64,000 nucleotides of DNA from contig CAVPSB010000037.1 of the NCBI GenBank assembly GCA_963708025.1, forward strand, positions 1-64,000, read 5' to 3'. This DNA is from an uncultured Candidatus Rokubacteria bacterium (GTDB lineage: Bacteria; Methylomirabilota; Methylomirabilia; Rokubacteriales; DASRDR01). Within the stretch, counting starts at the first letter, position 1. Each line of letters starts with the position of its first letter. Both the position numbers and the translations under genes were made by a program. The notes below the pieces were generated by a model, which was not told the origin of the DNA, searched no databases, and saw only the letters and a program-made list of their open reading frames with translations. Below, one piece after another: positions 18,101-48,792 of the stretch.

Positions 18101-19489
18101 GTGAAGACGGCGGCCGAGCGGCTGGCGGCGTTCGCGACGGAGCTCGCCTACGAGGCGATCCCGCCCGACGTCGTCGAGACGGCCAAGCTCCACCTCCTCG
18201 ACACGCTGGGGTGTGGCCTCGCCGCGCACGGGCTCGACGTCGCGACCGCGGGGCGGGCAGTGGCGGCCGAGATGGGGGGCACGCCGGAGGCGACGGCGAT
18301 CGGCCTCGCCCGCCGGCTGCCGGCGGCGCAGGCGGCGCTGGCCAACGGCATGCTGTGCCACGGCCTCGACTTCGACGACACGCACGCCGACGCCGTCTGC
18401 CACGTGAGCGTCGTCGTCGGGCCGGCGGCGCTCGCGGTCGGCGAGGCGCGGGGCGCGCCGGGCCGGGACGTCGTCGCTGCCCTCGTCGGCGGCAACGAGA
18501 TCGTGGCGCGCCTCGGCATGGCCGCCGGCGGCCTCTTCCACCGCCGCGGCTTCCACCCGACCGGTGTCTGCGGCGTGTTCGGCGCCACCGCGGCCGCCGC
18601 GCGGCTCGACGGCCTCGATGACCGGGCCGCCGCCCGCGCCCTCGGCATCGCCGGGAGCCTGGCCTCGGGCCTCCTCGCCTTTCTCGAGGACGGCTCGCCG
18701 ACCAAGCCGATCCATCCGGGCTGGGCGGCCCACGGCGCGGTCATGGCGGCGCGCCTGGTCGCCCACGGGGCCGCCGGCCCCGCGGCCGTCCTCGAGGGCC
18801 GCTACGGGCTCTACGACGCCTTCGTCGGCCAGGACGGCCGGGCCCTCGAGCGCGAGCTCGCCGACCTGGGCGCCCGGTGGGAGACCCGGCGGATCGCCTG
18901 CAAGCCCTATCCCGCCTGCCACTACGTGCACGGCGTGCTCGGGGCCGTCCGGGAGGCGACCGGCAGCCAGGCGCTGGCGCCCGACGAGATCGTGGAGGTC
19001 GTCGTCACCGTCCCCGAGGCGAGCGTGCCGATCGTGCTCGAGCCGGCCGCGGCGAAGGTCGCGCCCCGGACCGAGTACGAGGGGAAGTTCTCGCTCCCGT
19101 ACTCGACGGCGGCGATGCTCGTGCACGGGACCGTCGGGGTGGCGACCTACACGGAGAAGGCGATCGGTGACCCGGTGGTCCTCGAGGTCGCGCGGCGCGT
19201 CCGCTACGAGACCCGGCCCTACCCGACCGCGGCGCGCGCGTTCCCCGGGGGCATCCGGATCCGCCTCCGGGATGGCCGCACGCTGGAGGCGGACTGCCCG
19301 TACCAGAAGGGCGCCCCCGAGAACCCGCTCTCGCCGGCGGAGGTCGTGACGAAGTTTCGCGGGAACGCCGGGCTCGCGCTCCCGCCCGCGGCGGTGGCGG
19401 CGCTCGAGGCTGCCGTCCTCGACCTCGAGGGCGTTGGCGATCTTCCTGCGGCGCTCGCGCCCCTCCGCGACGCCATCCGGATCCGGTGA
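18101..19489 (+). CDS. MmgE/PrpD family protein
   Basis: LLDTLGCGLA, ALANGMLCHGLDFDDTH, RGFHPTGVCG, TKPIHPGWAA, KPYPACH, KFSLPY, GAPENPLS. Confidence 0.95.
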   Translation: MKTAAERLAAFATELAYEAIPPDVVETAKLHLLDTLGCGLAAHGLDVATAGRAVAAEMGGTPEATAIGLARRLPAAQAALANGMLCHGLDFDDTHADAVCHVSVVVGPAALAVGEARGAPGRDVVAALVGGNEIVARLGMAAGGLFHRRGFHPTGVCGVFGATAAAARLDGLDDRAAARALGIAGSLASGLLAFLEDGSPTKPIHPGWAAHGAVMAARLVAHGAAGPAAVLEGRYGLYDAFVGQDGRALERELADLGARWETRRIACKPYPACHYVHGVLGAVREATGSQALAPDEIVEVVVTVPEASVPIVLEPAAAKVAPRTEYEGKFSLPYSTAAMLVHGTVGVATYTEKAIGDPVVLEVARRVRYETRPYPTAARAFPGGIRIRLRDGRTLEADCPYQKGAPENPLSPAEVVTKFRGNAGLALPPAAVAALEAAVLDLEGVGDLPAALAPLRDAIRIR

Positions 19490-19510
19490 GAGACGGCCTA
19501 GTCATCAGCC

Positions 19511-19544
19511 GCTCCGGCTGGGCGGTGGGCGGGAGGTCCCGAAC
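19511..19544 (+). repeat. Intergenic modular repeat, core-less copy (CTCCGGCT...GGTGGGCGGGAGGTCCCGAA)
   Basis: Shares left and right arms with the copies at 21924 and 23070; GGAGG serves as SD of the CoA-transferase. Confidence 0.5.
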
Positions 19545-20753
19545 GTGAGGCCGCTCGCGGACGTCCGCATCCTCGCGCTCGAGCAGTACGGCGCCGGCCC
19601 GTTCGGGACACTCCACCTCGCCGACCTGGGCGCCGAGGTCATCAAGATCGAGGAGCCCACGACCGGCGGAGACGTCTCCCGCTACGTGCCGCCCGGCCAG
19701 GCGGGCGAGGACAGCCTCTTCTTCGAGACCTTCAACCGCAACAAGCGGAGCCTGTCGCTCGACCTCGGGACCGCGGCCGGCCGGCGGGTCTTCGAGGACC
19801 TGGTGCGCGTCTCCGACGTCGTGTACTCGAACCTCCGGGGCGACGTCCCGGGGCGGCTCCGCATCCGGTACGCGGACCTCCGGTCCCTGAACCCGGCGAT
19901 CGTCTGCTGCTCGCTCTCGGGGTTCGGCATGACCGGCCCCCGCCGGAGCGAGCCGGCCTACGACTACCTCCTCCAGGGGCTGGCCGGCTGGATGAGCCTC
20001 ACCGGCGAGCCCGACGGGCCGCCGACCAAGTCGGGGCTGTCGCTGGTGGACTACTGCGGCGGCTTCGTCGGCGCGCTGGCCGTCCTGGCCGGGGTCCACG
20101 CCGCGCGGCGCGACGGCGTGGGCATGGACTGCGACCTCGCCCTCTTTGACACCGCGGTGAGCCTCCTCACGTACGTGGGGACCTGGTATCTCACCGCCGG
20201 CGTCGAGCCGAGGCGCGCCCCCCACTCCGCCCATCCCTCGCTGGTGCCCTTCCAGAACTTCCAGACGGCCGACGGCTGGATCGTGGTGGCCTGCCCCAAG
20301 GAGAAGTTCTGGCGGCGTCTCTGCGAGGCGATCGGCCAGCCCGGGCTGGCCGACGACCCGCGCTTCGCCGACTTCGCCGCCCGGCACGCCCACGCCGGCG
20401 AGCTGCGGGATCTCCTGGGCAAGGCCTTCGCGGCGGCGGCCTCGGCCGAGTGGCTCGAGCGCCTCGCGGCTGGCGGCGTGCCGTGCGCCCCGGTGCACTC
20501 GGTCGCGGAGGCCCTGGCCGACCCGCAGACGGTGGCGCGAGGCCTCGTGGTGGAGACGGCCCACCCGCGCTTCGGCACGGTGCGGCAGCTCCGGAGCCCC
20601 GTCCGCGTCGGCGGCGAGCCCCCGCCCGACCGGCGGGCCCCGCGGCGCCACGAGGACGGCGACGGACTCCTGGCGGCGCTGCTCGGCTACGACCGCGACC
20701 GGATCGCCACCCTCGCGGCCGGCGGCGCCTTCGGCGTTCCGCCGCCCGCGTGA
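19545..20753 (+). CDS. CaiB/BaiF family (class III) CoA-transferase
   Basis: AGPFGTLHLADLGAEVIKIE, NRNKRSLSLDL, SLSGFGMTGP, AYDYLLQGLAGWMSLTGEPDGPP. Confidence 0.95.
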   Translation: MRPLADVRILALEQYGAGPFGTLHLADLGAEVIKIEEPTTGGDVSRYVPPGQAGEDSLFFETFNRNKRSLSLDLGTAAGRRVFEDLVRVSDVVYSNLRGDVPGRLRIRYADLRSLNPAIVCCSLSGFGMTGPRRSEPAYDYLLQGLAGWMSLTGEPDGPPTKSGLSLVDYCGGFVGALAVLAGVHAARRDGVGMDCDLALFDTAVSLLTYVGTWYLTAGVEPRRAPHSAHPSLVPFQNFQTADGWIVVACPKEKFWRRLCEAIGQPGLADDPRFADFAARHAHAGELRDLLGKAFAAAASAEWLERLAAGGVPCAPVHSVAEALADPQTVARGLVVETAHPRFGTVRQLRSPVRVGGEPPPDRRAPRRHEDGDGLLAALLGYDRDRIATLAAGGAFGVPPPA

Positions 20754-20766
20754 CGGAGTCGAGCCC

Positions 20767-21918
20767 ATGGACTTCGAGCTGAGCGAGGAGCAGCAGCTCT
20801 TCCGCAAGACCCTCCGGGACTTCGTCCGCGACCGGATCGCCCCGGTGGCGCGGGAGTGGGAGCAGGCGGGCCGGTATCCGACCGAGATCGTCGAGGGCAT
20901 GAAGGGGCTGGGGCTCTTCGGCCTGACGGTCCCCGAGGCGTACGGCGGGCTGGCCGTCGATCTCGTCTCCTACGCCATCGCGTTCGAGGAGATCGCCCGG
21001 GGGTGGATGGGGATCGCCGGCATCCTCGGCAGCCACTCCCTGGCCTGCTGGCTGCTGGCGCGGCACGGGACGGAGGCGCAGCGGGGGCGCTGGCTCCCCG
21101 ACCTCGCGACCGGCCGGCGGCGGTCGGGGCTGGCCCTGACCGAGCCGGGGGTGGGGAGCGATCTCCAGGCGATCACGACGCGCGCCGTCCGGGACGGCGA
21201 CGCCTACGTGCTCAGCGGGACCAAGATGTGGATCACGAACGCGCGCCACGCCGATCCCCTCCCGGTCCTCTGCGTGACCGATCCGGCGGCGGCGCCGCGC
21301 CATCGCGGCATCAGCGTGCTGATGGTCGAGGCCGGCACCCCGGGGTTCACGGTGGGCCGTGACCTGGGTAAGCTCGGCTACAAGGGCACCGAGTCGTGCG
21401 AGGTCCACTTCGAGTCCGCCCGGGTCCCGGCGGCCAACCTCCTCGGCGGCGCCGAGGGGCAGGGCTTCCGGCAGGTCATGACCGTGCTCGAGATCGGCCG
21501 CCTCAACGTCGCCGGGCGCAGCATCGGCATCGCCCAGGCCGCCTGCGACGCCGCGCTCCGCTACTCGCGCGAGCGTCACGCCTTCGGTCAGCCCATCGGC
21601 GACTTCCAGGCCGTGCAGCTCAAGCTCGCCGACATGGCCACCGGGATCCAGGCCGCCCGGCTCCTCACGTGGTGGGCCGCCGCCCGCACGGACCGCGGGG
21701 AGCGGGCCGACGCCGAGACCGCGATGGCCAAGCTCTTCGCCTCCGAGCTCGCCCTCCGGGCCGCGCTCGACTCGATGCGGATCCACGGCGGCTACGGCTA
21801 CTCGACGGAGTTCGAGGTGGAGCGCCTCTACCGGGACGCCCCGCTGATGGCGATCGGCGAGGGCACCAACGACATCCTGCGGGTCCTGATCGCCCGCGCC
21901 CTCGCCCGGGAGGCCTGA
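20767..21918 (+). CDS. Acyl-CoA dehydrogenase
   Basis: ALTEPGVGSD, GTKMWITN, KLGYKG, RHAFGQPIGDFQAVQLKLADM, IHGGYGY, IGEGTNDILR. Confidence 0.96.
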   Translation: MDFELSEEQQLFRKTLRDFVRDRIAPVAREWEQAGRYPTEIVEGMKGLGLFGLTVPEAYGGLAVDLVSYAIAFEEIARGWMGIAGILGSHSLACWLLARHGTEAQRGRWLPDLATGRRRSGLALTEPGVGSDLQAITTRAVRDGDAYVLSGTKMWITNARHADPLPVLCVTDPAAAPRHRGISVLMVEAGTPGFTVGRDLGKLGYKGTESCEVHFESARVPAANLLGGAEGQGFRQVMTVLEIGRLNVAGRSIGIAQAACDAALRYSRERHAFGQPIGDFQAVQLKLADMATGIQAARLLTWWAAARTDRGERADAETAMAKLFASELALRAALDSMRIHGGYGYSTEFEVERLYRDAPLMAIGEGTNDILRVLIARALAREA

Positions 21919-21923: not shown

Positions 21924-22045
21924 TGTGAAGCGATCGGTTCCTCCGGCTCCCCCCTCCCCCACGGCCAAAGGCCGAAGGCCGTCGAAAGGTAGGGGAGGGG
22001 GGCCAAAGGCCGAAGGCCGTCGAAGGATCGGGTGGGCGGGAGGAG
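21924..22045 (+). repeat. Intergenic modular repeat with two GGCCAAAGGCCGAAGGCCGTCGAA cores (21963, 22001)
   Basis: Left arm TGTGAAGCGATCGGTTCCTCCGGCTC, C-tract, core, G-tract, core, right arm GGGTGGGCGGGAGG. Confidence 0.85.
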
Positions 22046-22049
22046 ATCG

Positions 22050-23042
22050 ATGACCTCCACCGCGCGCATCATCGACGTCCACGCCCACGTGACGCCGCTG
22101 CGCTTCCAGCGGGCGGTCCTCTCCGGCTCCGACTGGTTCGGGATGACCCCGGCCGACGGCGAGCTCGGCAACATCCGGAACCGCTGGGGTCCGGCCCAGC
22201 GCATCGAGGCGATGGACGCGGCCCTGGTCGACGTCCAGCTCCTGTCGCCGACCGACTGCTTCTACCAGTACCACCGCGAGCCCTCCGTCACCGCGCGTAT
22301 CGCCGCCGAGTGCAACGACGAGGTCGCGGCGATGGTGCGGGATCACCCGGCGCGCTTCATGGGGCTGGGGACCTTGCCGATGCAGGACCCGGACCTGGCG
22401 GTGGCCGAGATGGAGCGCGGCCGGCGCCAGCTCGGACTCAGCGGCTTCATGATCGACGACCACGTCAACGGGCTGACCCACGACCACGACCTGTTCGACC
22501 CGTTCTGGGCCGCCGCCGAGGCCCTGGGGGCGTTCGTCTTCGTGCACCAGGGCGCGCCCACCTCCGTGACCTACCGGACGCAGAGCTACTTCCTGCTCAA
22601 CTCGGTAGGGAACCTCGTGGATCGCACGCTGACATATGGCTGTCTGGTCTACGGCGGCGTCATGGACCGATACCCGGCGCTCACGGTGTGCCTGGCCCAC
22701 GCCGGCGGGTACGTCCCCTACGCCATGGACCGCATGGACCACGGCTGGAAGGTCCGGCCGGCTTCGCGGGGCCGATCCCGCGACGTGCCGAGCAGCTATC
22801 TCCGGCGCTTCTACTACGACACCGTGACGTACACCGACCGGAACCTCCGGACGCTGGTCGACATGGTGGGGGCCGACCGCGTGGTCTTCGGAACCGACTG
22901 GCCCGCGCCCATGGCGGTCGAGGACGCGGTCCGCCGCATCCGGTCATCGACCGCGCTGACCGACGAGGAGCGACGCTTGATCCTGACGGACAACACGGAG
23001 CGGATCTTCGCCAGCACCGGCGCCGCCGCCGGCCGGGGCTGA
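22050..23042 (+). CDS. Amidohydrolase_2 family protein (ACMSD-like decarboxylase/hydratase)
   Basis: IIDVHAH, CNDEVA..V..HPARF.GLGTLPMQDP, VFVH, LAHAGG, FYYDTV, VVFGTDWP. Confidence 0.92.
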   Translation: MTSTARIIDVHAHVTPLRFQRAVLSGSDWFGMTPADGELGNIRNRWGPAQRIEAMDAALVDVQLLSPTDCFYQYHREPSVTARIAAECNDEVAAMVRDHPARFMGLGTLPMQDPDLAVAEMERGRRQLGLSGFMIDDHVNGLTHDHDLFDPFWAAAEALGAFVFVHQGAPTSVTYRTQSYFLLNSVGNLVDRTLTYGCLVYGGVMDRYPALTVCLAHAGGYVPYAMDRMDHGWKVRPASRGRSRDVPSSYLRRFYYDTVTYTDRNLRTLVDMVGADRVVFGTDWPAPMAVEDAVRRIRSSTALTDEERRLILTDNTERIFASTGAAAGRG

Positions 23043-23715: not shown

Positions 23716-24645
23716 TCATGGGTCCACCGTTCCCTCCCGAGGACCCGCGGACAAGACACCCCGACAGGGTACGGCAGGCGATACGGCTACACCAAGGAAC
23801 CTGTCAAGCGAGGGCGAGGCAGAGGGCGGGCGGTCAATGCGTCGCGGCGGGGGGCGGCGCCCCGTCGTGACCGGCATGGACCCCGCCGTCCCGGACCGGT
23901 AGTCGAAGCCAACCGGCGCGTCGGATCGTCCGCCGCGCGGCTCCGGGGCGAGGTTCAAGCTCTCCTTGACCGGCGCGGTGTGCTCGCGCATGAGCGCCTC
24001 CGCCCGCGCGCCTTCGCCGGCTTCGAGCGCCTCGACGATCGCGTGATGCTGGCGGTGAGCGTACCGGAGGATGTCGAACATCGAGGCCTTGTCGAGCCGG
24101 TCGAAGGCCACCGCCCGGGCGGCCGCGAACGGCACGTGGTCGTTCCGGGCGAGGGCGTCGGCGATGGCGCGGCTGCCGGCGGTCTCGACGACGAGCGCGT
24201 GAAAGCGCCCGTTCAGCTCGCTGTATCGCGACTCGTCGGTCTCGAGCAGGTGGCCGCGGGCGAAGATCTCGTCACCGTCCGCCAGGCAGCGTCGCAGCTC
24301 CCGCAAGAGGTCCGGTGACGCGCCGCGCTCGGCCACCAGGCGGGCGGCCAGCCCTTCCAGCACCCCCCGCACGTCGAGCGCCTCGAGAACGTCGCGGGCG
24401 CTGAAGGCGCGGACCACGTAGCCGCGCGCGCCCGCGGGGGCAAGGAGCCCTTCCCGGGCCAGAGCGGGGAGCGCCTGCCGGATCGGCGTGCGCGAGACGC
24501 CGAGTCGCTCGGCCAGGGCGACCTCCCCGAGCCGCTCCCCGGGCGCCAGGTCGCCCCGCAGGATCATCTCCCGCAGCTCCACGACGATGCGCGACTCTCG
24601 GGTGGCCATGTCTCTCTGCCGCTCGGCGGCGCCGTTTGTATCCAT
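23716..24645 (-). CDS. GntR/FCD family transcriptional regulator, VanR-like (C-terminal tail may be read-through)
   Basis: LREMILRGDLAPGERLGEVALAERLGVSRTPIRQAL HTH; FCD domain with NGRFH, VPFAA, QHHAIVEALEAGEGARAEALMREH. Confidence 0.9.
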   Translation of the reverse strand: MDTNGAAERQRDMATRESRIVVELREMILRGDLAPGERLGEVALAERLGVSRTPIRQALPALAREGLLAPAGARGYVVRAFSARDVLEALDVRGVLEGLAARLVAERGASPDLLRELRRCLADGDEIFARGHLLETDESRYSELNGRFHALVVETAGSRAIADALARNDHVPFAAARAVAFDRLDKASMFDILRYAHRQHHAIVEALEAGEGARAEALMREHTAPVKESLNLAPEPRGGRSDAPVGFDYRSGTAGSMPVTTGRRPPPRRIDRPPSASPSLDRFLGVAVSPAVPCRGVLSAGPREGTVDP

Positions 24646-24697
24646 TCATGCCATACGAGCCGTCATCCGGCCACGTCGTGGGCTGGTTTGGATCCAA
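24636..24697. promoter_or_regulatory. VanR-type operator pair: TTGTATCCAT (24636..24645) and perfect palindrome TTGGATCCAA (24688..24697)
   Basis: Lies in the divergent region between the VanR-like gene and the catabolic operon; matches the core of the Caulobacter vanO operator ATTGGATCCAAT. Confidence 0.75.
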
Positions 24698-24816
24698 CTT
24701 TTCGGTTAGAGTAGCCATCCGAGGCCCCAACGGTCAAGAGCGGGAGGGTGGGACGCCGGCCCCGCGGTCCGGGAACCCGACCCCACGCGGCGGAGGTCCC
24801 GGCAAGGAGACCCGAC

Positions 24817-25939
24817 ATGCACGCGAGATCGATTCCACCATTTCGCGCCGACCACGTCGGCAGCCTGCTGCGGCCGCCCGAGCTGCTGGCGGCCCGGGAC
24901 CGGTACGCGCGCGAGGAGATCCCCGCGGCCGAGCTCCGCCAGGCGGAGGACCGCTCGATCCGCGACGCGGTGCGGCTTCAGGAAGAGCTGGGGTTCCGGG
25001 CCGCCACGGACGGCGAGCACCGGCGGACGTTCTTCCACATCGACTTCCTCGAGAAGCTGGAGGGGGTCGCGGTGCGGGGCGGGCTGGCGACGCGGTTCCA
25101 CGGCGCGAAGGGTGACGTGGACTTCGCCCCGCCCCGCCTGGAAGTGACCGGCAAGCTCCGCCGCGTCCGGCCGATCCAGCTCGAGGACTTCCGCTACCTC
25201 CAGTCGGTGGCGCGCGTGGTTCCCGAAGGTCTGCATCCCCTCGCCGACCATGGTACATTTCCGCGGAGGGCGGGGGGCGATCAGCCGCGAGGCGTACCCG
25301 GACCTGGAGGAGTTCTTCGGCGACCTGGCCCGCTGCTACCGGGAAGAGCTCGCCGACCTGGCCGGCGCCGGCTGCCGGTATGTCCAGCTCGACGACACCA
25401 ACCTGGCCTACCTCTGCGATCCGAAGCTCCGCGAGGGGGCGCGGGAGCGGGGCGACGATCCCGAGGCGCTGCCGCGCCGGTACGCCCGGCTCATCAACGC
25501 GGCGCTGCGCGATCGCCCGGCCGGCCTCACCGTGGGCATCCACCTGTGCCGCGGTAACTTCAAGAGCGCCTGGGTCGCCGAGGGAGGCTACGAGCCGGTG
25601 GCCGAGGTCCTCTTCAACGAGCTCGACGTTGACGGGTACTTCCTGGAGTACGACGACCATCGATCGGGGGACTTCGCCCCGCTCCGGTTCGTCCCGCGCG
25701 GCAAGAAGCTGGTGGTGCTCGGGCTCGTCACCTCCAAGGTGGGCGCACTCGAGCCGAAGGCCGAGCTGGCGCGGCGAATCCAGGACGCCGGCCGCTACGT
25801 GCCGCTGGAGCAGCTCGCGCTGAGCCCCCAGTGCGGCTTCTCCAGCACGGTGCACGGGAACCAGGTGACCTTCGAGGAGCAGCGGGCGAAGCTCGGGCTG
25901 GTGGTGGAGACCGCGGCCGAGGTCTGGGGCTCTCTCTGA
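24817..25939 (+). CDS. Core MetE-like (methionine synthase II, YxjH-type) zinc enzyme (frameshift near 25223)
   Basis: PPFRADHVGSLLRP, ATDGEHRR, YVQLDDT, IHLCRGN, FLEYD, LSPQCGFSST; AAGGAG SD. Confidence 0.9.
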
Positions 25940-25943
25940 GAGC

Positions 25944-26040
25944 CTGAAGGACTCGGGTCTTCGGCTCCCGCTCCCCCCGGCCACAGGCCGAAGGCCGTGA
26001 AGGGTGGGGGAGGGGGGCTGGGGGGGTAGGCGGGAGGCCC
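25944..26040 (+). repeat. Intergenic modular repeat (core at 25979) with a four-G-tract arm
   Basis: CTGAAGGACTCGGGTCTTCGGCTC...CCCCCCGGCCACAGGCCGAAGGCCGTGAAGGGTGGGGGAGGGGGGCTGGGGGGGTAGG. Confidence 0.85.
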
Positions 26041-26058
26041 GATCAGGAGGACGCCGTC

Positions 26059-26712
26059 ATGGCGATCGACGTCGAGAAGCTGAGGCGGACGGGGACGCCG
26101 AGCGACCTGCCGTTCTCGATCCGGAAGATCGGACACGTCGTCCTCCGCGCCTCCGACCTCCAGCGCTCGGTTGACTTCTACACGAAGGTGCTCGGGTTCG
26201 AGATCTCCGACGTCTACCCCGAGGAGATGGTGCCGGGCGGGATGGTCTTCATGCGCTGCAACGCGGACCACCACGGCGTCGCCCTCGTGGGCGGCATGTC
26301 CGGTCCCGCCGCCAAACGGGAGCTCGACCACTTCGCGTTCGAGGTCGCCACGCTCGACGAGGTATTCCGTGCCCGCCGGCACCTGCGGGAGCGCGGGGTG
26401 CCCGTCGTCTTCGAAGGCCGCCGCCGGGCCGGCGTGCAGATCGCCATCGAGTTCAACGACCCCGACGGGCACCACCTCGAGATCTACTGGGGGGTGGACC
26501 AGGTCGGCCCCGACGGCCGGGTCCGCCCCGCCGCGGAGTGGCGGGGCGCCAAGACGCTGGAGGAGGCGGTGGCGAACCCCGTGCCCGGCCAGCATCCGGC
26601 GCTCTCCGACCCAACCCTCCTCCAACCGGGGGCCATCGTTCCGGCCCCCCCCTCCCCCCCGGCCACAGGCCGAAGGCCGTCGAAGGGTGGGGGAGGGGGG
26701 CTGGGGGGGTAG
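26059..26712 (+). CDS. VOC-family protein resembling a one-domain type I extradiol dioxygenase
   Basis: IGHVVL, FYTKVLGF, NADHHGVAL, LDHFAFEV, FNDPDGHHLEIY; the last ~25 codons are repeat-derived. Confidence 0.85.
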   Translation: MAIDVEKLRRTGTPSDLPFSIRKIGHVVLRASDLQRSVDFYTKVLGFEISDVYPEEMVPGGMVFMRCNADHHGVALVGGMSGPAAKRELDHFAFEVATLDEVFRARRHLRERGVPVVFEGRRRAGVQIAIEFNDPDGHHLEIYWGVDQVGPDGRVRPAAEWRGAKTLEEAVANPVPGQHPALSDPTLLQPGAIVPAPPSPPATGRRPSKGGGGGLGG

Positions 26713-26726
26713 GAGGGAGGTCCCGA
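26641..26726 (+). repeat. Modular repeat copy overlapping the VOC 3' end and supplying the galB SD
   Basis: About 58 nt nearly identical to 25973..26030; ends GGAGGGAGGTCCCGA-ATG. Confidence 0.88.
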
Positions 26727-27434
26727 ATGACGGCCCTCGTGGTGAGCGCGCACGCGGCGGACTTCGTCTGGCGCTGCGCCGGCGCGATCGCTCTGTACGC
26801 CCGGCGCGGTTACGAGGTCACCATCCTGTGCCTGTCCTACGGCGAGCGCGGCGAGTCGGCCAAGCTCTGGCGCGAGCCGGGGATGACCCTGGAGCGGGTC
26901 AAGCAGAGTCGCCACCAGGAGGCGCAGGCGGCGGCGGACGTCCTGGGGGGGCGGCTCGTCACGTTCGACGCCGGCGACTACCCGCTCCGGCTCACCGACG
27001 AGCTGTTCGCCCGGCTGGTCGACCTGTACCGGGACGTCCGCCCGGCGTTCGTGCTGACCCACGCGCTCGAGGACCCCTACAACCGCGACCACCCGGACGC
27101 CGCGCGGCTGGCCCAGGAGGCGCGCATCGTCGCCCAGGCGCACGGCCACCGGCCAGAGCAGAAGGTGATCGGCGCGCCGCCCGTGTTCCTGTTCGAGCCC
27201 CACCAGCCGGAGCAGTGCAACTTCCGGCCGCAGGTGCTGCTCGCGATCGACGAGGTGTGGGAGGTCAAGCGGAAGGCGATGGAGTGCATGGCGGCCCAGG
27301 AGCACTTGTGGGAGTACTACACGCGCGTCGCGCTGCAGCGAGGCGTGCAGGCCGCCCGCAACTCGGACCGCCAGGTGAAGTACGCCGAGGCCTACCAGCG
27401 GATCTACCCCCAGGTCACGGACGCCCTGGCATGA
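26727..27434 (+). CDS. galB: 4-oxalomesaconate hydratase (PIG-L family)
   Basis: LVVSAHAADFVWRCAGAIA, LSYGERGESAKLW, DPYNRDHP, FLFEPHQPEQCNF, MAAQEHLWEYY. Confidence 0.9.
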   Translation: MTALVVSAHAADFVWRCAGAIALYARRGYEVTILCLSYGERGESAKLWREPGMTLERVKQSRHQEAQAAADVLGGRLVTFDAGDYPLRLTDELFARLVDLYRDVRPAFVLTHALEDPYNRDHPDAARLAQEARIVAQAHGHRPEQKVIGAPPVFLFEPHQPEQCNFRPQVLLAIDEVWEVKRKAMECMAAQEHLWEYYTRVALQRGVQAARNSDRQVKYAEAYQRIYPQVTDALA

Positions 27435-28585
27435 ACGGCGGACCGATGGGGCAGACCCGGATTCCCTGCCTGATGATGCGAGGCGGCACCTCGAAGGGTG
27501 CGTACTTCCTCGCCGCCGACGTCCCCGCGGATCCCGCGCGGCTCGAGCGGGTCCTGCTCGCCGTCATGGGCTCGCCCGACCGGCGGCAGATCGACGGGCT
27601 GGGCGGCGCGGATCCGCTGACCAGCAAGGTGGCCATCGTCGGCCCGCCGACCCGGGCCGACGCCGACGTTGACTACCTGTTCGCGCAGGTGGTCGTTGAC
27701 GAGCCGCGGATCGACCTCAACCAGAACTGCGGGAACCTCCTGGCCGGGGTGGCGCCGTTCGCGATCGAGCGCGGCCTGGTCGAGGCACGCGAGGGCGAGA
27801 CGCGGGTCCGCATCCACATGGTCAACAGCGCGAGCCTGGCCGAGGCCACCGTGCAGACGCCGGACGGGCGCGTCCGGTACGACGGCGAGGCCCGCATCGA
27901 CGGCGTGCCGGGGACGCACGCCCCGGTGCTGATCGACTTCCTGGACGTCGCCGGCTCGTCCTGCGGCGCCCTGCTGCCGACCGGCAACGCCGTTGACGTT
28001 CTCGATGGCGTCCCCTGCACGCTGATCGACAACGGGATGCCGGTGGTCGTGGTGGCGGCGGCCGCCCTCGGCCGCACGGGCTACGAGTCCAAGCCGGAGC
28101 TGGACGCGGACGACGAGCTCAAGCGTCGCGTCGAGGCGGTCCGCCTGAAGGCGGGACCGCTGATGAACCTGGGCGACGTCGCGCGGAAGAACGTGCCGAA
28201 GGTGTCGCTGGTGGCGCCGCCCCGGGCGGGCGGCGCCCTGTGCACCCGGACCTTCATTCCCCGCGACTGCCACGCGGCGATCGGCGTGCTCGGCGCGGTG
28301 ACGGTGGCGGCCGCCTGCGTGTGGCCGGGCTCGGTCGCGGCCGGGGTGGCGGTGGTGCCCGCCGGCGCCCGCAAGCGCCTGGCGATCGAGCACCCCAGCG
28401 GCGAGTTCACCGTCGAGCTGGACGTCGAGGAAGCCGGCGGCCGTCCCCGGCTCCGGCGCTCGGCGCTGCTGCGGACCGCCCGGCTCCTGTTCGACGGCTA
28501 CGTGCACGTGCCGGCCGGCGTCTGGGACGGCCGGAGCGGTCGGCCGGGGCCGGAGCAGCGGGCGGCCGCGGCGCCGGGACGCTGA
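27431..28585 (+). CDS. galD: 4-oxalomesaconate tautomerase (PrpF family)
   Basis: MMRGGTSKGAYF, MGSPDRRQIDGLGGADPLTSKVAIV, QNCGNLLAGV, IDNGMP, CHAAIGVLGAVTVA, EHPSG, LLRTARLLFDG; ATGA overlap with galB. Confidence 0.92.
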   Translation: MNGGPMGQTRIPCLMMRGGTSKGAYFLAADVPADPARLERVLLAVMGSPDRRQIDGLGGADPLTSKVAIVGPPTRADADVDYLFAQVVVDEPRIDLNQNCGNLLAGVAPFAIERGLVEAREGETRVRIHMVNSASLAEATVQTPDGRVRYDGEARIDGVPGTHAPVLIDFLDVAGSSCGALLPTGNAVDVLDGVPCTLIDNGMPVVVVAAAALGRTGYESKPELDADDELKRRVEAVRLKAGPLMNLGDVARKNVPKVSLVAPPRAGGALCTRTFIPRDCHAAIGVLGAVTVAAACVWPGSVAAGVAVVPAGARKRLAIEHPSGEFTVELDVEEAGGRPRLRRSALLRTARLLFDGYVHVPAGVWDGRSGRPGPEQRAAAAPGR

Positions 28586-28597: not shown

Positions 28598-30076
28598 GTG
28601 ATCCTCCACGCCAACCACATCGGGCCAGGCGGCGCTGCGCTGCCGGCGCTCAGTGAGAAGGCCGGCGAGGTCGTCCGGACGGTGCTGGGCCTCGTCGGGG
28701 AGGGGCGGTTCGACCCGCGCGTGGTGTCGGGTCTCCGCCTCCACCTCGACTGGATCCAGTACCGGGCCAACTTCCGGGAGCCGGTGACCGTCCGCCGGGC
28801 GACCGATCCGCGCGGGGGGACGGCCGCCCTCGCCGAGATCGCCGTCGACCTCCGCCGGGTCGAGCCGGCGTCCCTCCGCACCGCCCTCGCCGACGCCTTC
28901 CGCGCCGTGAGCGACGACGCGGCCCTCGATCCCTCCGGCGCGTCCGGGCGCCTCTACCTCGACGACTGGGTGCCGCTGCGCGACAGCGTGATCTGGCGGT
29001 TCAACCACCTCTTCTGGCAGCACGTGGCCGACTGGGAGGCCGCCGTCGGGCGGCGGTTCGAGGAGGCGCTGCCGAGCGGTCGCTCCGACGCCAACCACCC
29101 GGAGGCGGTGGCGGATTCGGTGGCCGACTTCTGGACCCTCCTGCGCGACCTGGAGAAGCGGGGGCGGCTTCCCGCCGAGCTGTTCGTGCTGGAGATCGGC
29201 GTGGGATCCGGGATGCGCGCCGGGCTCTGGCTGGACCGCTTCCGCGCGCTGGACGAGGAGCGGGGCACGACCTACTACCCGCGCCTGCGGTTCCTGCTCG
29301 GCGACTACTCGCTGCCGACGCTGGACCGCGCCCTGGCGGCGGTGGCGTCCCACGGCGACATCGTGAGCGTCATCGCCATGGACGCGCTGAACCCGCTCAA
29401 GACGCTTGCCTTCTTGCGATACAAGATCCTCTACGTCCACCTCACGAACGTCTACGACAACCTGCCCCACGACGAGCTGGTCCGTCGCGATGGCCGCCTC
29501 TACCTGGTCGAGGCCCGCGGCTACCTCTCGCGGGAGGACGCCGAGCGGATCGCGGCCGCCGCCGGGCTGGCGCCCGAGGCCGTCGGCCCGACGGTGGAGC
29601 ACCTGCTCCGGATCGGCCCCGGGGCCCTGGGGACGACGGATCGGGGGGTCGCGTTCTGGCGGGCGGTGTGGGACGCCCTCCGCCTGGAGGAGCGGCTCGT
29701 ACAGCTGGACGACGTCGCCCAGGCGCCCATCCCGCCCGGGCTCGACCGGAGCCATCTCGAGGACCTGCTGGGCGAGGCCCCGGACGACGTGCGCTTCCAC
29801 CTCTCGCGGGGCGCCGCCGAGAGCTTCGTCCACACCGTGCCCCTCCTCCATCCGCGCGGCTACCTCCAGGTCCAGGACATCTTCGTGACCGACATGCACG
29901 AGTACCGGCAGGGCTTCCGCGGGCCCGGCAAGCTCGACGGGTCGGTCGTGAACTGGGTCAACGGCGCCCTCCTGCGCGCGATCGGGGCGCGCGCGGGCTA
30001 CGACGTCCACTTCGCGCCGTTCCGGTACCGGGCGGGGTCGCGGACGTCGATCCTCTACACCACCCCGCGGGAGTGA
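28598..30076 (+). CDS. Class I SAM-dependent methyltransferase-like protein (MidA/NDUFAF7-like) with an extra N-terminal domain
   Basis: Motif I VLEIGVGSG; acidic end of strand 2 (LRFLLGDYS); LTNVYDNLP resembling the SNELFDALP motif; LLHPRGYLQVQD. Confidence 0.75.
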   Translation: MILHANHIGPGGAALPALSEKAGEVVRTVLGLVGEGRFDPRVVSGLRLHLDWIQYRANFREPVTVRRATDPRGGTAALAEIAVDLRRVEPASLRTALADAFRAVSDDAALDPSGASGRLYLDDWVPLRDSVIWRFNHLFWQHVADWEAAVGRRFEEALPSGRSDANHPEAVADSVADFWTLLRDLEKRGRLPAELFVLEIGVGSGMRAGLWLDRFRALDEERGTTYYPRLRFLLGDYSLPTLDRALAAVASHGDIVSVIAMDALNPLKTLAFLRYKILYVHLTNVYDNLPHDELVRRDGRLYLVEARGYLSREDAERIAAAAGLAPEAVGPTVEHLLRIGPGALGTTDRGVAFWRAVWDALRLEERLVQLDDVAQAPIPPGLDRSHLEDLLGEAPDDVRFHLSRGAAESFVHTVPLLHPRGYLQVQDIFVTDMHEYRQGFRGPGKLDGSVVNWVNGALLRAIGARAGYDVHFAPFRYRAGSRTSILYTTPRE

Positions 30077-30081
30077 CGTCG

Positions 30082-31080
30082 ATGTCGGAGCTCTTGCCCA
30101 CCGCCGTCGTCGGAAGCTACGCGATGCCCGGGTGGCTCGAACGGGTGAAGAACGACTACCTGCACCGCCGGCTGTCCCGCCACGACCTCGACGACATCCA
30201 CGACACCGCGGTGAAGGCGGCGATCAAGGACCAGGAAGTGGCCGGCGTCGACATCGTCTCGGACGGGGAGCTCCGCCGGGAGAACATGATCGATCACTTC
30301 ACGACCCGGCTCCCCGGGGTCGAGATCGACCACGCGTCGAAGCGCTCCTACTACGATCTGTACGACTGCGTGGTGCGCGGGCGGCTCCCCACCGGCTCGC
30401 TCGGGCTGGTCGAGGAGTTCCGCTTCCTCCGGCGCTTCACCGACCGGCGCGCGAAGATCTCCGTCACCGGCCCCCACTCGCTCGTCAAGCGCATCCGCAA
30501 CGCCCACTACCCGAGCGACGAGGCCTTCGCCCTCGACATCGCCCGCGTCCTGAACGTCGAGCTGCGCGAGCTGGTGCGGGCGGGGGCGACCGACATCCAG
30601 ATCGACGAGCCGTACTACTCGGGGTTCCCCGAGGACCTGCCGTGGGGCGTGCGCGCGATCAACGCGCTCGTCGAGGGCGTGGGGGCGTGGCTGTCGCTCC
30701 ACGTCTGCTACGGGAACCGCTACGGCAAACCCTCGTGGGAGGGGAGCTACCGCTACCTGTTCCCGGCGATCCTCGACGCGCGCGTGAACCAGCTCACGCT
30801 GGAGTTCGCGCGACGAGGCGACGAGGACGTCCGGCTCTTCAAGGAGTTCGATCCGCCGTTCACTCTTGGCCTCGGCGTCATCGACGTGAAGAGCCACGAG
30901 GTCGAGACCCCGGGGATGGTCGCCGAGCGGGTCCGCGCCGGCCTCGACGTCGTGCCGGCGGCCCGGCTCGCGATCAACCCGGACTGCGGGCTCCTGCACC
31001 TCCCCCGGGCCGTCGCGTTCGCGAAGCTGGGGGCGATGGTGGACGGGACGCGGATCGTGCGCCGGGAGGTCGGCGGCTGA
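30082..31080 (+). CDS. Core (single-barrel) cobalamin-independent methionine synthase
   Basis: PTAVVGSYAMP, DQEVAGVDIVSDGELRR, TGPHSL, IQIDEP, Zn ligands LHVCYGN / LEF / NPDCG. Confidence 0.88.
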   Translation: MSELLPTAVVGSYAMPGWLERVKNDYLHRRLSRHDLDDIHDTAVKAAIKDQEVAGVDIVSDGELRRENMIDHFTTRLPGVEIDHASKRSYYDLYDCVVRGRLPTGSLGLVEEFRFLRRFTDRRAKISVTGPHSLVKRIRNAHYPSDEAFALDIARVLNVELRELVRAGATDIQIDEPYYSGFPEDLPWGVRAINALVEGVGAWLSLHVCYGNRYGKPSWEGSYRYLFPAILDARVNQLTLEFARRGDEDVRLFKEFDPPFTLGLGVIDVKSHEVETPGMVAERVRAGLDVVPAARLAINPDCGLLHLPRAVAFAKLGAMVDGTRIVRREVGG

Positions 31081-32583
31081 ACAGTCTGGCGGCGGCGCTC
31101 CAGGGTGGCCGCTTCTGCTACGTCGTGGAGCTGGTCGCCTCGGCCCTCAGTCGCGAGGCGAAGCTCCTCGAGGTGGCCTCGGGCCTCGCCCGTCTCCCTG
31201 ACGTGGTGGCCGGGAGCGTCACCAGCTACGCGGGGGGCGCCATGGGCCACGACCCGATCCGGGTCGGCGCCGCCGCCCGCGCCCGGGGGCTCACGCCCAA
31301 CGTCCACCTGACGTGCGTCAGCCAGGACCGCCAGGCCGTGCGCAAGACGCTCGAGGACCTCCACGCCCTCGGGATCGAGAACGTCTTCGCGCTCACCGGC
31401 GACTATCCGCGATCCGGGCCCGCCGGGAAAGACCGGCCGGCCGAGCCGCCGGTGTTCGACCTCGACTCGGTCCAGCTCGTCCGCCTGATCGACGACCTCC
31501 GCCGGGCGGGCCGGGGCTTCCACGTCTCGGTCGCGGTCTCCCCGTTCAAGTACATCGAGGCGGACTGCCTCTGGCAGTACCTGAAGCTCGAGAAGAAGAT
31601 CGCCGCCGGCGCCGACTGCGCCATCACCCAGGTCGGCTGGGACGCGGAGAAGTTCCGCGAGCTCAAGCGCTACCTCGGCGAGCGCGGGCTGACCACGCCG
31701 CTCCTCGGCAACGTCTACGTCCTCGGCCCGCGCACCGCCGAGCGGATGAGCCGGGGCGAGCCGCCGGGGTGCTGGGTGTCGCCGGCGCTGCTGGCTACCG
31801 TCCAGCAGGAGAGCCGGGCCCCGGACGGCGGCCGGCGCGCCCGCCTGGAGCGCGCCGCGCGGACGGTCGCGGTGCTCCGCGGCCTCGGGTACGCCGGCGC
31901 CTACATCGGCGGCACCCACGACCCCGCGCACATCGAATGGATCGTCCGCCGGGCGGCGGAGCTGGCCCCGCGCTGGGAGGAGCTGGCCGTGGAGCTAGCC
32001 TACGGCGCCGAGGACGGGTTCTACCTGTACGCGGATCGCGGCCGCGGCGCCCGGTCGGCGACGCCGGCCGGCGCGCCCCCGCTCCGCCCGCCGCCGGGCC
32101 AGGGGCGGCTGGTCACGGCGATCGTGCCGCGCGCCCTCGACCTCCTGGGCCGGCTCTTCCCGGTGACGCGCGACACCTGGCTCCGCCGGGCCCTCCGCCG
32201 GCTCGGCGCGCGGGTGGACCGGATCCCGGCGCTGGCGGGCGCGGTCGAGCGCGTCGAGCGGGCGGTGAAGACGCCCCTCTTCGGCTGCCAGTCCTGCGGC
32301 AACTGCGTGCTCGGCCACCTGGAGTACGTCTGCCCGCAGACGTGCCCGAAGCAGCTCCGGAACGGCCCGTGCGGGGGCACTCACCTCGGGCGCTGCGAGG
32401 TGGTGCCGGACCAGCCGTGCATCTGGGTCGGGATGTACGAGCGCGCCCGCGCGGGCGGCCGGGTCCACGGGCCTGCTCACCTACGTGCCGCCGCCGGCCC
32501 GGTCGCTCCAGGGCACCAGCTCCTGGCTCAACTACCTCCTCGAGCGCGACAGCCGACCCTCGACCCTCGCCCCCGACCCGTAG
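31077..32583 (+). CDS. metF: Methylenetetrahydrofolate reductase fused to a Cys-rich MTHFR_C (MetV-like) domain; CTG start; frameshift near 32470
   Basis: NVHLTC, NVFALTGDYP, VSPFK, KKIAAGADCAITQVGWD; C-terminal FGCQSCGNC...CPQTCPKQLRNGPCGG...CEV...CIW; tail LQGTSSWLNY in shifted frame to TAG 32583. Confidence 0.88.
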
Positions 32584-32608
32584 CTGGCCCGACCTCCTCA
32601 CGGACGCG

Positions 32609-32662
32609 CCCTGCAAGCTGGTCCCCAATGCCCACATTGAGAGCTTCCGCAGTCGATTCCGT
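32609..32662 (+). mobile_element. Degenerate IS3-family transposase (integrase core) remnant
   Basis: Translates PCKLVPNAHIESFRSRFR, matching the PGKPxQNAxIESFNGRxR motif around the catalytic Glu; locally lower GC. Confidence 0.5.
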
Positions 32663-32702
32663 GCTCCCTCTCCCTCCCGTGGGAGGGCGAGGTTAAGAAG
32701 GG

Positions 32703-40853: not shown

Positions 40854-41053
40854 CGCCGCCATGGTCTCTTTGCCGCTGTGACGGTGGGCAAGAGGCGCGA
40901 GTCGAGGAGCGGCCCCTGCTGACAGGGTGGACGATCTCTCGAGCCGCGACTAGTGCCGTTCCAACTTGATGCGGCTATTGCTCGGCGCCAGGTCGCACGG
41001 CGCCGCGCCCGTGACAGGGCCGTCGGCAACTCGTTGAGAAAGCTCGAACGGCA

Positions 41054-46062: not shown

Positions 46063-46105
46063 GAAACGCACTCTTCCGATCACACTTGACGGAGGTGGCA
46101 CGCCG

Positions 46106-47107: not shown

Positions 47108-47120
47108 CGGCCGGCCCGGC

Positions 47121-48789: not shown

Positions 48790-48792
48790 CCC

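Follow-up and report, generated by a model that had tools for sequence, protein, structure and literature searches.

Inspection of the window, the whole stretch of 64,000 nucleotides analysed here, revealed a gene for a GntR-family regulator with an FCD domain on the minus strand, followed by genes for a MetE-like protein, a one-domain VOC protein, GalB and GalD, all on the plus strand. The regulator (23716..24645, minus strand; PF00392 57 bits, PF07729 57 bits) is divergent from the operon and reaches no NCBIfam equivalog, the best match being phnR_burk (108 bits, cut-off 271). The original prediction called it VanR-like; membership is shown at the level of the GntR/FCD family. Upstream of the cluster, a neighbouring gene (22032..23042, plus strand; PF04909 149 bits) encodes an Amidohydrolase_2 protein resembling ACMSD/LigW decarboxylases; its best PDB matches are ACMSD (E 7e-51) and, at E 3e-33, 5-carboxyvanillate decarboxylase, and it matches LigJ only at E 4.5e-13. 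The operon continues past 28585 with three further co-directional genes, each starting shortly after the preceding one (12, 5 and about 44 bp). The first of these (unk492; 28598..30076, plus strand) begins a lineage-typical block and encodes a conserved 492-residue protein without a match in Pfam, NCBIfam or PDB; at E<=1e-5 its homologues number 2436, those with names coming from Methylomirabilota/Rokubacteria, and it is syntenic in relatives. It is followed by a core, single-domain MetE-type methionine synthase (30082..31080, plus strand; PF01717 136 bits, NF003317 270 bits, below the cut-off of 406) and an MTHFR-like protein with a C-terminal DUF5981 (31125..32696, start uncertain, plus strand; PF02219 81 bits, PF12225 83 bits).

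The galB gene (26727..27434, plus strand) encodes a 4-oxalmesaconate hydratase of the PIG-L/LmbE fold (PF02585 72 bits) that matches the P. putida 4-oxalmesaconate hydratase 5CGZ over its full length (E 6.4e-96, residues 2-235 of 235). The galD gene (27431..28585, plus strand), whose start overlaps the galB stop (ATGA), encodes a 4-oxalomesaconate tautomerase of the PrpF family (NF033377 531.6 bits, cut-off 440; PF04303 364 bits). These sequence matches show GalB and GalD to be true orthologues of the enzymes responsible for converting 4-oxalomesaconate (OMA) to 4-carboxy-4-hydroxy-2-oxoadipate. As in the gal cluster of P. putida KT2440 (galA, galB, galC and galD) and in galBCD of Pseudomonas sp. 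NGC7, the orthologous genes are adjacent and co-directional. Unlike in those systems, the VOC gene heads galB-galD, the regulator is of the GntR/FCD rather than the LysR type (GalR), and GalA (a LigB+LigA fusion) and GalC are missing from the window and, above cut-off, from the genome. According to a report on strain NGC7, its upper syringate genes are under a GntR-type repressor (PMC12314914).

We looked for the remaining pathway components in the window and beyond. As the original prediction held, the window has no galA/ligAB, galC or vanAB; indeed, LigA, LigB, RraA/LigK and Rieske matches are absent from the entire contig. Elsewhere in the genome there are two matches to LigA, four to LigB, two weak LigK-like matches and 13 to Rieske proteins. 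The prediction had counted co-regulated galA/ligAB elsewhere in the genome as evidence against it, and it is partly weakened by four distant LigB-family genes on other contigs. All four score below the cut-offs for gallate and protocatechuate 4,5-dioxygenases, the best with 145 of 412 bits. LigK/GalC above cut-off is absent from the whole genome (best 97 of 179 bits), and no orthologues of LigJ, LigI-like proteins or DUF1932 proteins were found in it. By the enzymes recognisable in its sequence, the OMA route in this genome is incomplete. A GalB orthologue is found in 0 of 40 relatives (best identity 37%), and the closest relatives of VOC, GalB and GalD in the genome collection are mainly from Proteobacteria (64-83% identical).

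The MetE-like gene was predicted as a member of the operon. It does belong to the PRK06520/YxjG-YxjH type and occupies 24817-25939 on the plus strand, but not as one open frame: its N-terminal part (24817..25224; profile positions 3-129 of NF005085, 95 bits) is in frame 1 and its C-terminal part (25220..25939; profile positions 134-368, 347.5 bits, cut-off 313) in frame 2, owing to an extra base near 25222 (break about 25216-25225). The gene is intact in soil contigs of about 97% identity, the base at 25222 being absent at all depth in three soil runs, and contigs of such identity from three soil studies keep the order MetE-like, VOC, GalB. Since further frame breaks occur in the window (8187-9296 and 40950-43082), an assembly error may account for the frameshift. 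Like the YxjG/YxjH-type "methionine synthase II" proteins (NF005085/NF004875; PDB 1YPX), the gene product matches NF005085, and its homologue at locus L125, in a single frame and 84-85% identical, matches 1YPX at E 1e-103; unlike theirs, the window gene is split and placed between a GntR gene and VOC. We know of no member of this group with a proven substrate.

The same prediction cast the MetE-like protein as a stand-in for GalA/LigAB or as a demethylase of the pathway, which the comparisons support poorly. Apart from the window, the gene adjoins VOC only at L125 and L139, making 3 of 161 loci in all, and it is frameshifted in this assembly. Of 11 loci from relatives, 6 have a member of its family as the first gene of a conserved operon of MetE-like, unk492, core MetE and MTHFR genes that is free of gal genes. 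A demethylase role is thus weakly supported, and VOC-galB-galD looks to have been inserted into this lineage-typical operon.

The VOC gene (26059..26712, plus strand; PF00903 91 bits) encodes a protein conserved over residues 1-189 (to 26625). It is flanked by copies of a REP-like palindromic element detected by blastn. One, between the MetE-like and VOC genes (25973..26037), has 361 blastn matches in the genome, and summed contig depth is very high in the bins that match it. The other, between VOC and galB (26625..26729), takes the place of 33 nt that close relatives have, and three soil runs (X1, X2 and X6) carry the joint 26624>26730 with 33 other letters in its place. The last 28 VOC codons (26626-26712) derive from the repeat element and are unconserved.

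The motifs GHVVL, NADHHG, LDHFAFEV and HHLEIYWG are present as originally reported, and the best PDB match of the protein is the BphC catalytic domain; the family profile retrieved 1HAN (74.7 bits), then 3B59 and catechol 2,3-dioxygenases. Alignment of 24 sequences revealed His26, His71, His72, His91, Arg121-Arg123, Glu131 and Glu141 as invariant, and the residues aligned to BphC His146, His195, His210, Glu260 and Phe187 are the same in 24 of 24 family members. The likeness to type I extradiol catalytic domains thus holds for the VOC fold, the length of about 190 residues, the 2-His-1-carboxylate triad, the catalytic His and the Phe187 equivalent, but not for BphC His241 and Tyr250, whose equivalents are invariantly Arg122 and Glu131, within a clade-wide GRRRAG-Q-A-EF motif. 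To our knowledge, His and Tyr at these positions are conserved in all characterised type I extradiol enzymes, and all eight two-domain relatives aligned (30-34% identity) keep GRH...Y-x-x-DP. The replacement would fit a changed chemistry at least as well as a changed substrate. An AlphaFold2 model (pLDDT 82.7) has the VOC fold (Z 12-14) with small VOC isomerases as top structural neighbours; single-domain ring-cleaving neighbours are L-DOPA dioxygenase 6ON1 (Z 11.2) and 9U42, titled homogentisate dioxygenase (Z 12.3). By description the protein is akin to the one-domain subfamily I.1 (BphC2/BphC3 of Rhodococcus globerulus P6; AromaDeg "lineage 2"), a lineage described as largely uncharacterised (PMC4250580). 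Unlike type I extradiol enzymes, it has OMA-pathway rather than biphenyl or catechol genes as neighbours.

The original prediction named a lack of conserved linkage to galBD as evidence against it; linkage of VOC to OMA-pathway genes is conserved well beyond the window. Among 160 related loci (80 from genomes and 80 from metagenomes), such genes adjoin VOC in 42, namely LigK/GalC in 21, a DUF1932 dehydrogenase in 26, LigJ in 17, GalB in 9 and GalD in 9; where at least 2.5 kb is available on both sides, 20 of 76 loci are linked. LigK neighbours (354-363 bits, cut-off 179) and LigJ neighbours (PDB 2GWG/6DWV, E about 1e-152) were verified. The linkage spans Alpha- and Betaproteobacteria, Binatia and this genome in differing gene orders, recurrent operons being LysR | VOC-LigK-DH-SBP-LigJ, VOC-LigK-SBP-LigJ, DLH-VOC-GalB-LigK and esterase-GalD-LigK-VOC-DH. 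The DLH-VOC-GalB-LigK arrangement occurs in a Burkholderiales isolate. Related loci thus resemble the route for 4,5-cleavage of protocatechuate in Sphingobium sp. SYK-6 and its relatives (LigAB, LigC, LigI, LigU, LigJ and LigK) in joining true LigJ/LigK orthologues, and sometimes GalD/LigU and a LigI-like hydrolase, to VOC in one operon. They differ in lacking LigAB and the GFO/MocA-type LigC and in pairing VOC with a DUF1932/6PGDH-like dehydrogenase, whose nearest solved structures (PDB 4EZB and 3QSG) are both uncharacterised.

We also compared LigB content between carriers and non-carriers. Among the 42 linked loci, L014 alone has a LigB gene, and some carriers (L014 and the genomes G041, G042 and G046) have LigB-type genes in or near their OMA clusters. 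A strong LigB/GalA-type match (at least 217 bits to NF009904) was found in 2 of 12 VOC-positive genomes with LigK above cut-off, or in 4 of 12 if divergent LigB genes beside GalD (G041 and G042) are counted, versus 11 of 13 VOC-negative, LigK-positive controls drawn from a 400-genome class sample (Fisher p 0.0012 or 0.015, from related genomes and different classes that are not independent samples). This supports the original prediction, for which co-occurrence of VOC with galBD where galA is absent was the proposed test. All 5 of 5 known carriers were picked up by the VOC search. In 15 of 19 linked genomes, scoring covered the one or two best LigB-superfamily genes; in six (G049, G055, G061, G064, G068 and G094) these match no model but that of YgiD/DOPA-dioxygenase, whether or not they pass its cut-off. 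LigK is enriched about sevenfold in VOC-positive genomes (12 of 54 versus 13 of 400 sampled). On a quick tree the linked loci are clustered (19 changes versus a shuffle mean of 31, with 0 of 500 shuffles as low), and in the window's half 21 of 65 rows are linked and 30 unlinked rows form one betaproteobacterial clade. No pathway gene lies within 7-8 kb of VOC in 118 of 160 loci, and Vineibacter terrae and Marinibaculum pumilum are among the carriers of unlinked copies. The family is untied to the full OMA pathway, since most carriers, many of them incomplete MAGs, lack GalD (34 of 52) or LigK (42 of 54) above cut-off.

We tentatively favour the reading, which in our estimate falls a little short of an even chance, that VOC opens the ring as a non-canonical dioxygenase and thereby supplies OMA. 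VOC-galB-galD would be a lower meta-cleavage module of the gallate type, gained by horizontal transfer in a Methylomirabilota-like genome from soil and lying between the MetE-like gene and a lineage-typical methyl-metabolism block. As a member of a conserved clade of putative one-domain relatives of type I extradiol dioxygenases, VOC would most likely hold Fe(II) or Mn(II) by His26, His91 and Glu141, with His72 as the probable acid/base, and use O2 to open a gallate-, 3-O-methylgallate- or protocatechuate-type ring to an OMA/4-carboxy-2-hydroxymuconate skeleton. GalD and GalB (elsewhere LigJ and LigK) would then process this skeleton, such that VOC could fill the role of LigAB/GalA without being homologous to them. 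Arg122 and Glu131, specific to the clade, may tailor the pocket to substrates that are both carboxylated and polyhydroxylated. In relatives where VOC is accompanied by a lactone or ester hydrolase and a DUF1932-type NAD(P) dehydrogenase, a protocatechuate-like or methylated substrate is probable, and the route may run via a hemiacetal, lactone or methyl ester.

The main rival, which we regard as rather unlikely, makes VOC a metal-dependent isomerase, tautomerase or other non-oxidative enzyme acting on a ring-fission tricarboxylate, converting 4-carboxy-2-hydroxymuconate to OMA or OMA to 2-keto-4-carboxy-3-hexenedioate as a non-homologous counterpart of MgaD/DesD or LigU/GalD. The metal would be chelated by the 2-oxo/2-hydroxy acid and His72 or Glu131 would shift a proton, as in glyoxalase I and methylmalonyl-CoA epimerase. 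Such a role would accommodate the Arg122/Glu131 replacement, the three arginines of the GRRRAG motif, which suit a tricarboxylate, and the first rank of isomerases among structural neighbours. PrpF is listed in only about 7 of 26 hydratase loci (17 LigJ, 9 GalB), and hydratase and VOC occur without a GalD match in G045 (E<=0.001) and in G048, G049 and G050 (E<=1e-60); at L182, VOC lies within an esterase-GalD-LigK set resembling MgaC/MgaD-GalD-GalC of Pseudomonas sp. However, an accessory enzyme predicts the usual ring-opener alongside, and strong LigB/GalA-type genes are instead rare in LigK-positive carriers. In nine loci, the window among them, VOC has GalD next to it, where a LigU-like VOC would be superfluous; dioxygenase catalytic domains top the sequence and profile searches, and the dioxygenase HH motif is invariant in the clade.

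We consider it unlikely that the cluster here is a fragment, gained by horizontal transfer and now decaying or incomplete, that has no working pathway, with the MetE-like gene and VOC brought together by chance when it inserted into a native operon. The missing GalB in relatives, the proteobacterial kinship of the three genes beside a Methylomirabilota-typical 492-residue neighbour, the gal-free operon of relatives, the frameshift, the VOC 3' end rewritten by a repeat element and a genome without LigK, LigJ or GalA orthologues all speak for it. Yet the order persists, with MetE-like intact, in the contigs of three soil studies, the frameshift may be artefactual, and the VOC, GalB and GalD frames are open with all family-invariant residues kept; moreover, the window's MetE-like gene is closer to the VOC-adjacent copies at L125 and L139 (70-79% for the latter) than to the relatives' operon gene (38-54%). 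More improbable still is a general role of the clade outside aromatic ring fission, such as detoxification of reactive dicarbonyls or quinones, with OMA genes as occasional neighbours. The predominance of unlinked loci, the wholly unlinked betaproteobacterial clade and copies beside housekeeping genes (L25, Pth, YchF) or unrelated transporters would suit it, whereas the recurrence of linkage in different orders and phylum-level groups, the LigK enrichment of carriers and the clustering of linked loci on the tree argue against it.

In this genome and in dozens of further soil bacteria, most of which lack the usual ring-opener, VOC has genuine gallate-pathway genes as neighbours. If it opens the ring, operons of the VOC-LigK-SBP-LigJ type would constitute a complete gallate route, and VOC may provide this route of plant-phenol breakdown with an alternative first step that has gone unrecognised.

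The gene list that the original prediction gave for 23716-28585 holds on a contig (C37) of 74,199 nucleotides, of which the window takes in positions 1-64000 and which is one of the 49 contigs of a genome (G000) of 8.17 Mb with a G+C content of about 72%: a GntR-family regulator with GntR and FCD domains in Pfam (23716-24645, minus strand) is followed on the plus strand by a MetE-like gene (NF005085/PRK06520 family; 24817-25939), a VOC gene of 217 codons (26059-26712; PF00903, 91 bits), a PIG-L gene (26727-27434) and a PrpF-family gene (27431-28585) whose start overlaps the PIG-L stop. The PIG-L protein aligns over its full length with the 4-oxalmesaconate hydratase of P. putida (PDB 5CGZ, E 6.4e-96, residues 2-235 on 3-240), and the PrpF-family protein scores 531.6 bits against the equivalog model for 4-oxalomesaconate (OMA) tautomerase (NF033377, cut-off 440), versus 213 bits against PrpF proper (TIGR02334, cut-off 440). 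Because of the full-length match and the score over cut-off, we regard the two genes, by sequence, as genuine galB and galD. The cluster does not stop at galD, as had been listed, since three more co-directional genes lie beyond it at gaps of 12, 5 and about 44 bp: one for a conserved 492-residue protein (28598-30076), a core MetE gene (30082-31080) and an MTHFR-like gene (31125-32696). A promoter and terminator scan returned no promoter-like and two terminator-like sites, the same as in shuffled sequence.

By known enzymes the route in G000 is incomplete. Whole-genome family searches bear out the claimed absence of galA/ligAB, galC and vanAB from the window, as LigA, LigB, LigK-like and Rieske matches all fall on contigs other than C37, which carries no ring-cleavage dioxygenase of the LigB type (GalA, LigAB, DesB). 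The best LigB-type match in the genome reaches 145 bits against a cut-off of 412 (NF009904) and 124 against 837 (NF009912), and four distant LigB-family genes are present. For the CHA aldolase GalC/LigK the best score is 96.9 bits against a cut-off of 179 (NF006731), from a gene that passes the model of another RraA-like family instead (NF006093), and G000 holds no orthologue of LigK, LigJ, a LigI-like protein, a DUF1932 protein or GalA. LigA/LigB loci on two other contigs (C13 and C16) were considered and not counted as galA/ligAB because they score far below the gallate/protocatechuate dioxygenase cut-offs; their surroundings are unrelated (DUF1989, L-PSP, xanthine-dehydrogenase-type and AMP-ligase genes). 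A GalB orthologue is absent from all 40 relatives examined, one of which (G038) is flagged as unpublished, and the VOC, GalB and GalD proteins of G000 most resemble proteobacterial genes, which together point to horizontal acquisition.

Among solved structures searched with the VOC protein by sequence and by profile, extradiol dioxygenase catalytic domains come first, in the order BphC 1HAN, 3B59 and catechol 2,3-dioxygenases, and an AlphaFold2 model (pLDDT 82.7) has the VOC fold, with Z scores of 12-14 to small VOC proteins and of 9 to HsaC/BphC. The iron ligands of BphC, His146, His210 and Glu260, correspond to VOC His26, His91 and Glu141, none of which varies among the 24 family members aligned. 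Catalytic His195 of BphC corresponds to His72, in a stretch where CNADHH aligns with CNERHH, and Phe187 to Phe64; His71, His72 and Phe64 are likewise invariant in the 24 members. As far as is known, characterised type I enzymes also conserve the second-sphere residues His241 and Tyr250 in a G-x-H ... Y-x-x-D-P signature. The predicted likeness to these enzymes thus extends to the metal triad and the catalytic histidine but not to the second sphere, as the His241 and Tyr250 columns hold Arg122 and Glu131, both invariant in the clade and part of an invariant motif, G-R-R-R-A-G-x-Q-x-A-x-E-F-x-D-P-D. A search of 1.8 billion representatives returned 77 homologues at E<=1e-30. In an 18-sequence alignment, G-R-H ... 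Y-x-x-D-P is kept by all eight two-domain relatives (30-34% identical) and not by the one-domain clade, and on this pattern we read the clade as a branch that derives from type I extradiol dioxygenases, two of its active-site residues having changed and then become fixed.

By its conserved length of 189 residues, the VOC protein is a candidate for the one-domain subfamily I.1 of BphC2/BphC3 (a single catalytic domain of about 190 residues). Structural neighbours include isomerases and transferases (GlxI, FosA) as well as the single-domain ring-cleaving 6ON1 and, by its title, 9U42. Both Foldseek and VIA-align bear out the VOC fold without telling dioxygenase from isomerase, so the modelled fold does not settle the chemistry. 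The 56 plasmid records found by tblastn are all less than 60% identical (30-37% in the listed rows) and carry generic annotations, and the homologue P0039 falls in generic "VOC family" clusters of the protein Atlas.

The VOC gene has many relatives at 60-92% identity, and we surveyed the neighbourhoods of 160 loci, the top 80 each of species genomes and of metagenomes. Verified probes place an OMA-pathway gene beside the VOC gene in 42 of the 160 loci and show none in the other 118; where at least 2.5 kb is available on both sides, 20 of 76 loci are linked. These counts supersede an initial survey that relied on the window proteins as sole probes and on rough GC3-based gene calling; it found 7 of 80 loci linked and missed LigK, LigJ and the dehydrogenase. 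The genes found are a dehydrogenase with DUF1932 and NAD_binding_2 domains (26 loci), LigK/GalC (21 loci; 354-363 bits, cut-off 179), LigJ (17 loci; PDB 2GWG/6DWV, E about 1e-152), and GalB and GalD (9 loci each, by tblastn with the window proteins). Gene order differs between lineages: LysR | VOC-LigK-dehydrogenase-SBP-LigJ; VOC-LigK-SBP-LigJ; DLH-VOC-GalB-LigK ... LigI-like ... dehydrogenase; GalB <-> VOC-GalD; and carboxylesterase-GalD-LigK-VOC-dehydrogenase. A LigB gene occurs in only one of the 42 linked loci (L014, from a genome flagged as unpublished). Linked loci group together in a quick tree, where one betaproteobacterial clade of 30 rows is wholly unlinked, and some unlinked VOC copies adjoin housekeeping genes. 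The expected conservation of linkage to OMA-pathway genes is borne out for the VOC gene; the MetE-like gene lies beside it in just 3 of 161 loci. The hydrolases beside VOC operons vary between lineages, among them an MBL-fold protein (L135, 4964-5833), a dienelactone hydrolase (L016, 3052-3885), a LigI-like amidohydrolase (L015, 4096-4893) and a carboxylesterase (L182, 4595-6121), which is what a lactone or methyl-ester intermediate, if one forms, would lead one to expect.

Co-occurrence across genomes gives indications rather than proofs, the genomes being related, partly incomplete and of different classes. GalD is over cut-off in 18 of 52 VOC-positive genomes, and LigK in 12 of 54, versus 13 of 400 in a one-class genome sample (Fisher p 4e-6). 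We scored LigK-positive genomes for a strong LigB/GalA-type match, defined as at least 217 bits to NF009904: 2 of the 12 with VOC have one, or 4 of 12 when the divergent LigB beside GalD in two further genomes (G041, G042) is added, compared with 11 of 13 VOC-negative controls (Fisher p 0.0012 or 0.015). VOC was found in none of these 13, by a search that recovered the gene in 5 of 5 known carriers. PF02900 proved too broad a discriminator, matching 19 of 19 linked genomes, and in 15 of these the one or two top-scoring genes of the LigB superfamily were re-scored with NCBIfam models; in six (G049, G055, G061, G064, G068 and G094) the scored genes match the YgiD/DOPA-dioxygenase model only.

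The recurrent head position of VOC in operons that hold both the OMA hydratase and the CHA aldolase, the scarcity of LigB genes in them, and the complementary distribution with LigB/GalA-type genes lead us to favour, at slightly under an even chance, the earlier suggestion of a ring-opening dioxygenase, here one that supplies an OMA-type substrate. The enzyme would open gallate-like rings; for protocatechuate-like or methylated substrates it would work alongside the dehydrogenase and a hydrolase of lactones or esters. The Arg and Glu in the BphC His241 and Tyr250 columns, the invariant run of three arginines and the many VOC-LigJ operons that lack GalD/LigU speak instead for a metal-dependent isomerase acting on a ring-fission tricarboxylate, a serious alternative that we consider less likely. 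The AromaDeg paper places protocatechuate 4,5- and gallate dioxygenases in the LigB superfamily and terms the one-domain VOC lineage largely uncharacterised (PMC4250580), and a paper on syringate in strain NGC7 gives the current 3-O-methylgallate route as the LigAB-like MgaAB, an esterase and a tautomerase (PMC12314914). In the open-access literature searched, we found no paper with a VOC enzyme in a gallate or protocatechuate 4,5-cleavage pathway.

Two kinds of irregularity affect the reading frames of the cluster. The MetE-like gene matches NF005085 but spans two frames rather than one: the N-terminal part (24817-25224) covers profile positions 3-129 with 95 bits, and the C-terminal part (25220-25939), in another frame, covers positions 134-368 with 347.5 bits (cut-off 313). 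Contigs about 97% identical in three soil metagenome runs from three studies lack one base at 25222 at all depth, and the 84-85% identical homologue at locus L125 reads in one frame. The window has further breaks, in a second MetE-like gene that reads in three frames (8187-9296, minus strand) and in branched-chain-type permease genes (40950-43082, minus strand), and for this reason we hold an assembly indel at 25222 to be at least as likely as a pseudogene. Another MetE-like gene of G000 is also frame-broken (contig C14, 357990-359014), and the several broken genes suggest either assembly indel errors or several pseudogenes. The second irregularity is a REP-like palindromic intergenic element, with a C-rich arm, a core GGCCACAGGCCGAAGGCCGT and a G-rich arm, that gives 361 blastn matches over most contigs of G000, five of them on C37 (21942-22003, 25973-26037, 26625-26729, 37512-37546 and 47943-47977). 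Since C37 shares this genome-wide element it belongs to G000, and we rule out a binning contaminant. The copy at 25973-26037 separates the MetE-like and VOC genes, and that at 26625-26729, in the VOC/galB interval, stands where near relatives have 33 nt and forms the stretch just upstream of galB. The VOC reading frame is thus present as described, except that its last 28 codons are non-native and read from this element.

The three genes beyond galD form a lineage-typical operon (28598-32696). Among 11 loci of relatives (L251-L261), a PRK06520-type gene directly precedes the genes for the 492-residue protein, core MetE and the MTHFR-like protein in six and a PrpF-like gene does so in two; in G000, VOC-galB-galD sits between the MetE-like gene and this block. 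Because relatives keep this block without any gal genes, we down-weighted the idea that it forms one functional unit with them. The 492-residue protein contains a GxGxG-like stretch, VLEIGVGSG, and has 2436 homologues but no match in Pfam, NCBIfam or the PDB; the names on its homologues suggest that G000 is a Methylomirabilota/Rokubacteria-like soil bacterium. The MTHFR member carries DUF5981. Headed by a MetE-like or PrpF-like gene, this operon may represent a methyl-transfer module, so far undescribed, of Methylomirabilota-like bacteria. The MetE-like protein of the window is 84-85% identical to that of L125 (beside VOC) and 70-79% to that of L139 (beside VOC, convergent), against 38-54% to the operon gene of relatives. 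Since it is so much closer to the former, a functional tie with VOC is possible on sequence grounds, resting on 3 of 161 loci. One conceivable role of the putative enzyme is to capture a methyl group from a methoxy substituent or, more plausibly in chemical terms, from a ring-fission methyl ester. The same open-access search yielded no paper assigning a substrate to PRK06520-type proteins, of which G000 has four paralogues besides about a dozen other MetE-like matches. On contig C19 (96286-128293), a PRK06520-type gene lies beside an NMT1-like binding protein gene, two further MetE-like matches, a gene of the MBL fold (with 57% identity to its counterpart adjoining the L135 VOC operon) and a PrpF-like gene (43% identical to GalD).

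Two other co-directional groups lie in the window. At 46076-51176, an NMT1-type ABC transporter, a GFO/IDH/MocA oxidoreductase and a UbiD-family decarboxylase (TIGR00148, 287 bits, over cut-off) make up a possible hydroxyaromatic-acid decarboxylation module. At 18101-21918, genes for a protein of the MmgE/PrpD family, a CoA-transferase of family III and an acyl-CoA dehydrogenase stand upstream of one for an ACMSD/LigW-like amidohydrolase.

The decay of tannin and lignin yields gallate, syringate and protocatechuate as major products, and annotation of their meta-cleavage route, in genomes as in metagenomes, looks for LigAB/GalA-type genes. We propose, tentatively and with some doubt, that a widespread, uncharacterised VOC clade of about 190 residues is a third, non-homologous opener of gallate/protocatechuate-type rings into the OMA pathway, often paired with a DUF1932 dehydrogenase that would replace LigC, and that in the sub-lineage of the window a YxjG-type MetE-like zinc enzyme travels with it and could capture a methyl group, from a methoxylated substrate or a ring-fission methyl ester, as methionine. 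If VOC opens the ring, many soil bacteria that seem to lack its first step would turn out to be competent degraders, including Proteobacteria, Binatia and Methylomirabilota-like genomes with LigJ/LigK or GalB/GalD and no recognisable LigB-type enzyme, and lignin valorisation would gain a compact new enzyme, for example for PDC or OMA-derived products. Should VOC prove to be an isomerase, it would supply the step missing from operons without LigU/GalD. Either way, the annotations "VOC family protein" and "DUF1932" become assayable hypotheses with defined candidate substrates.
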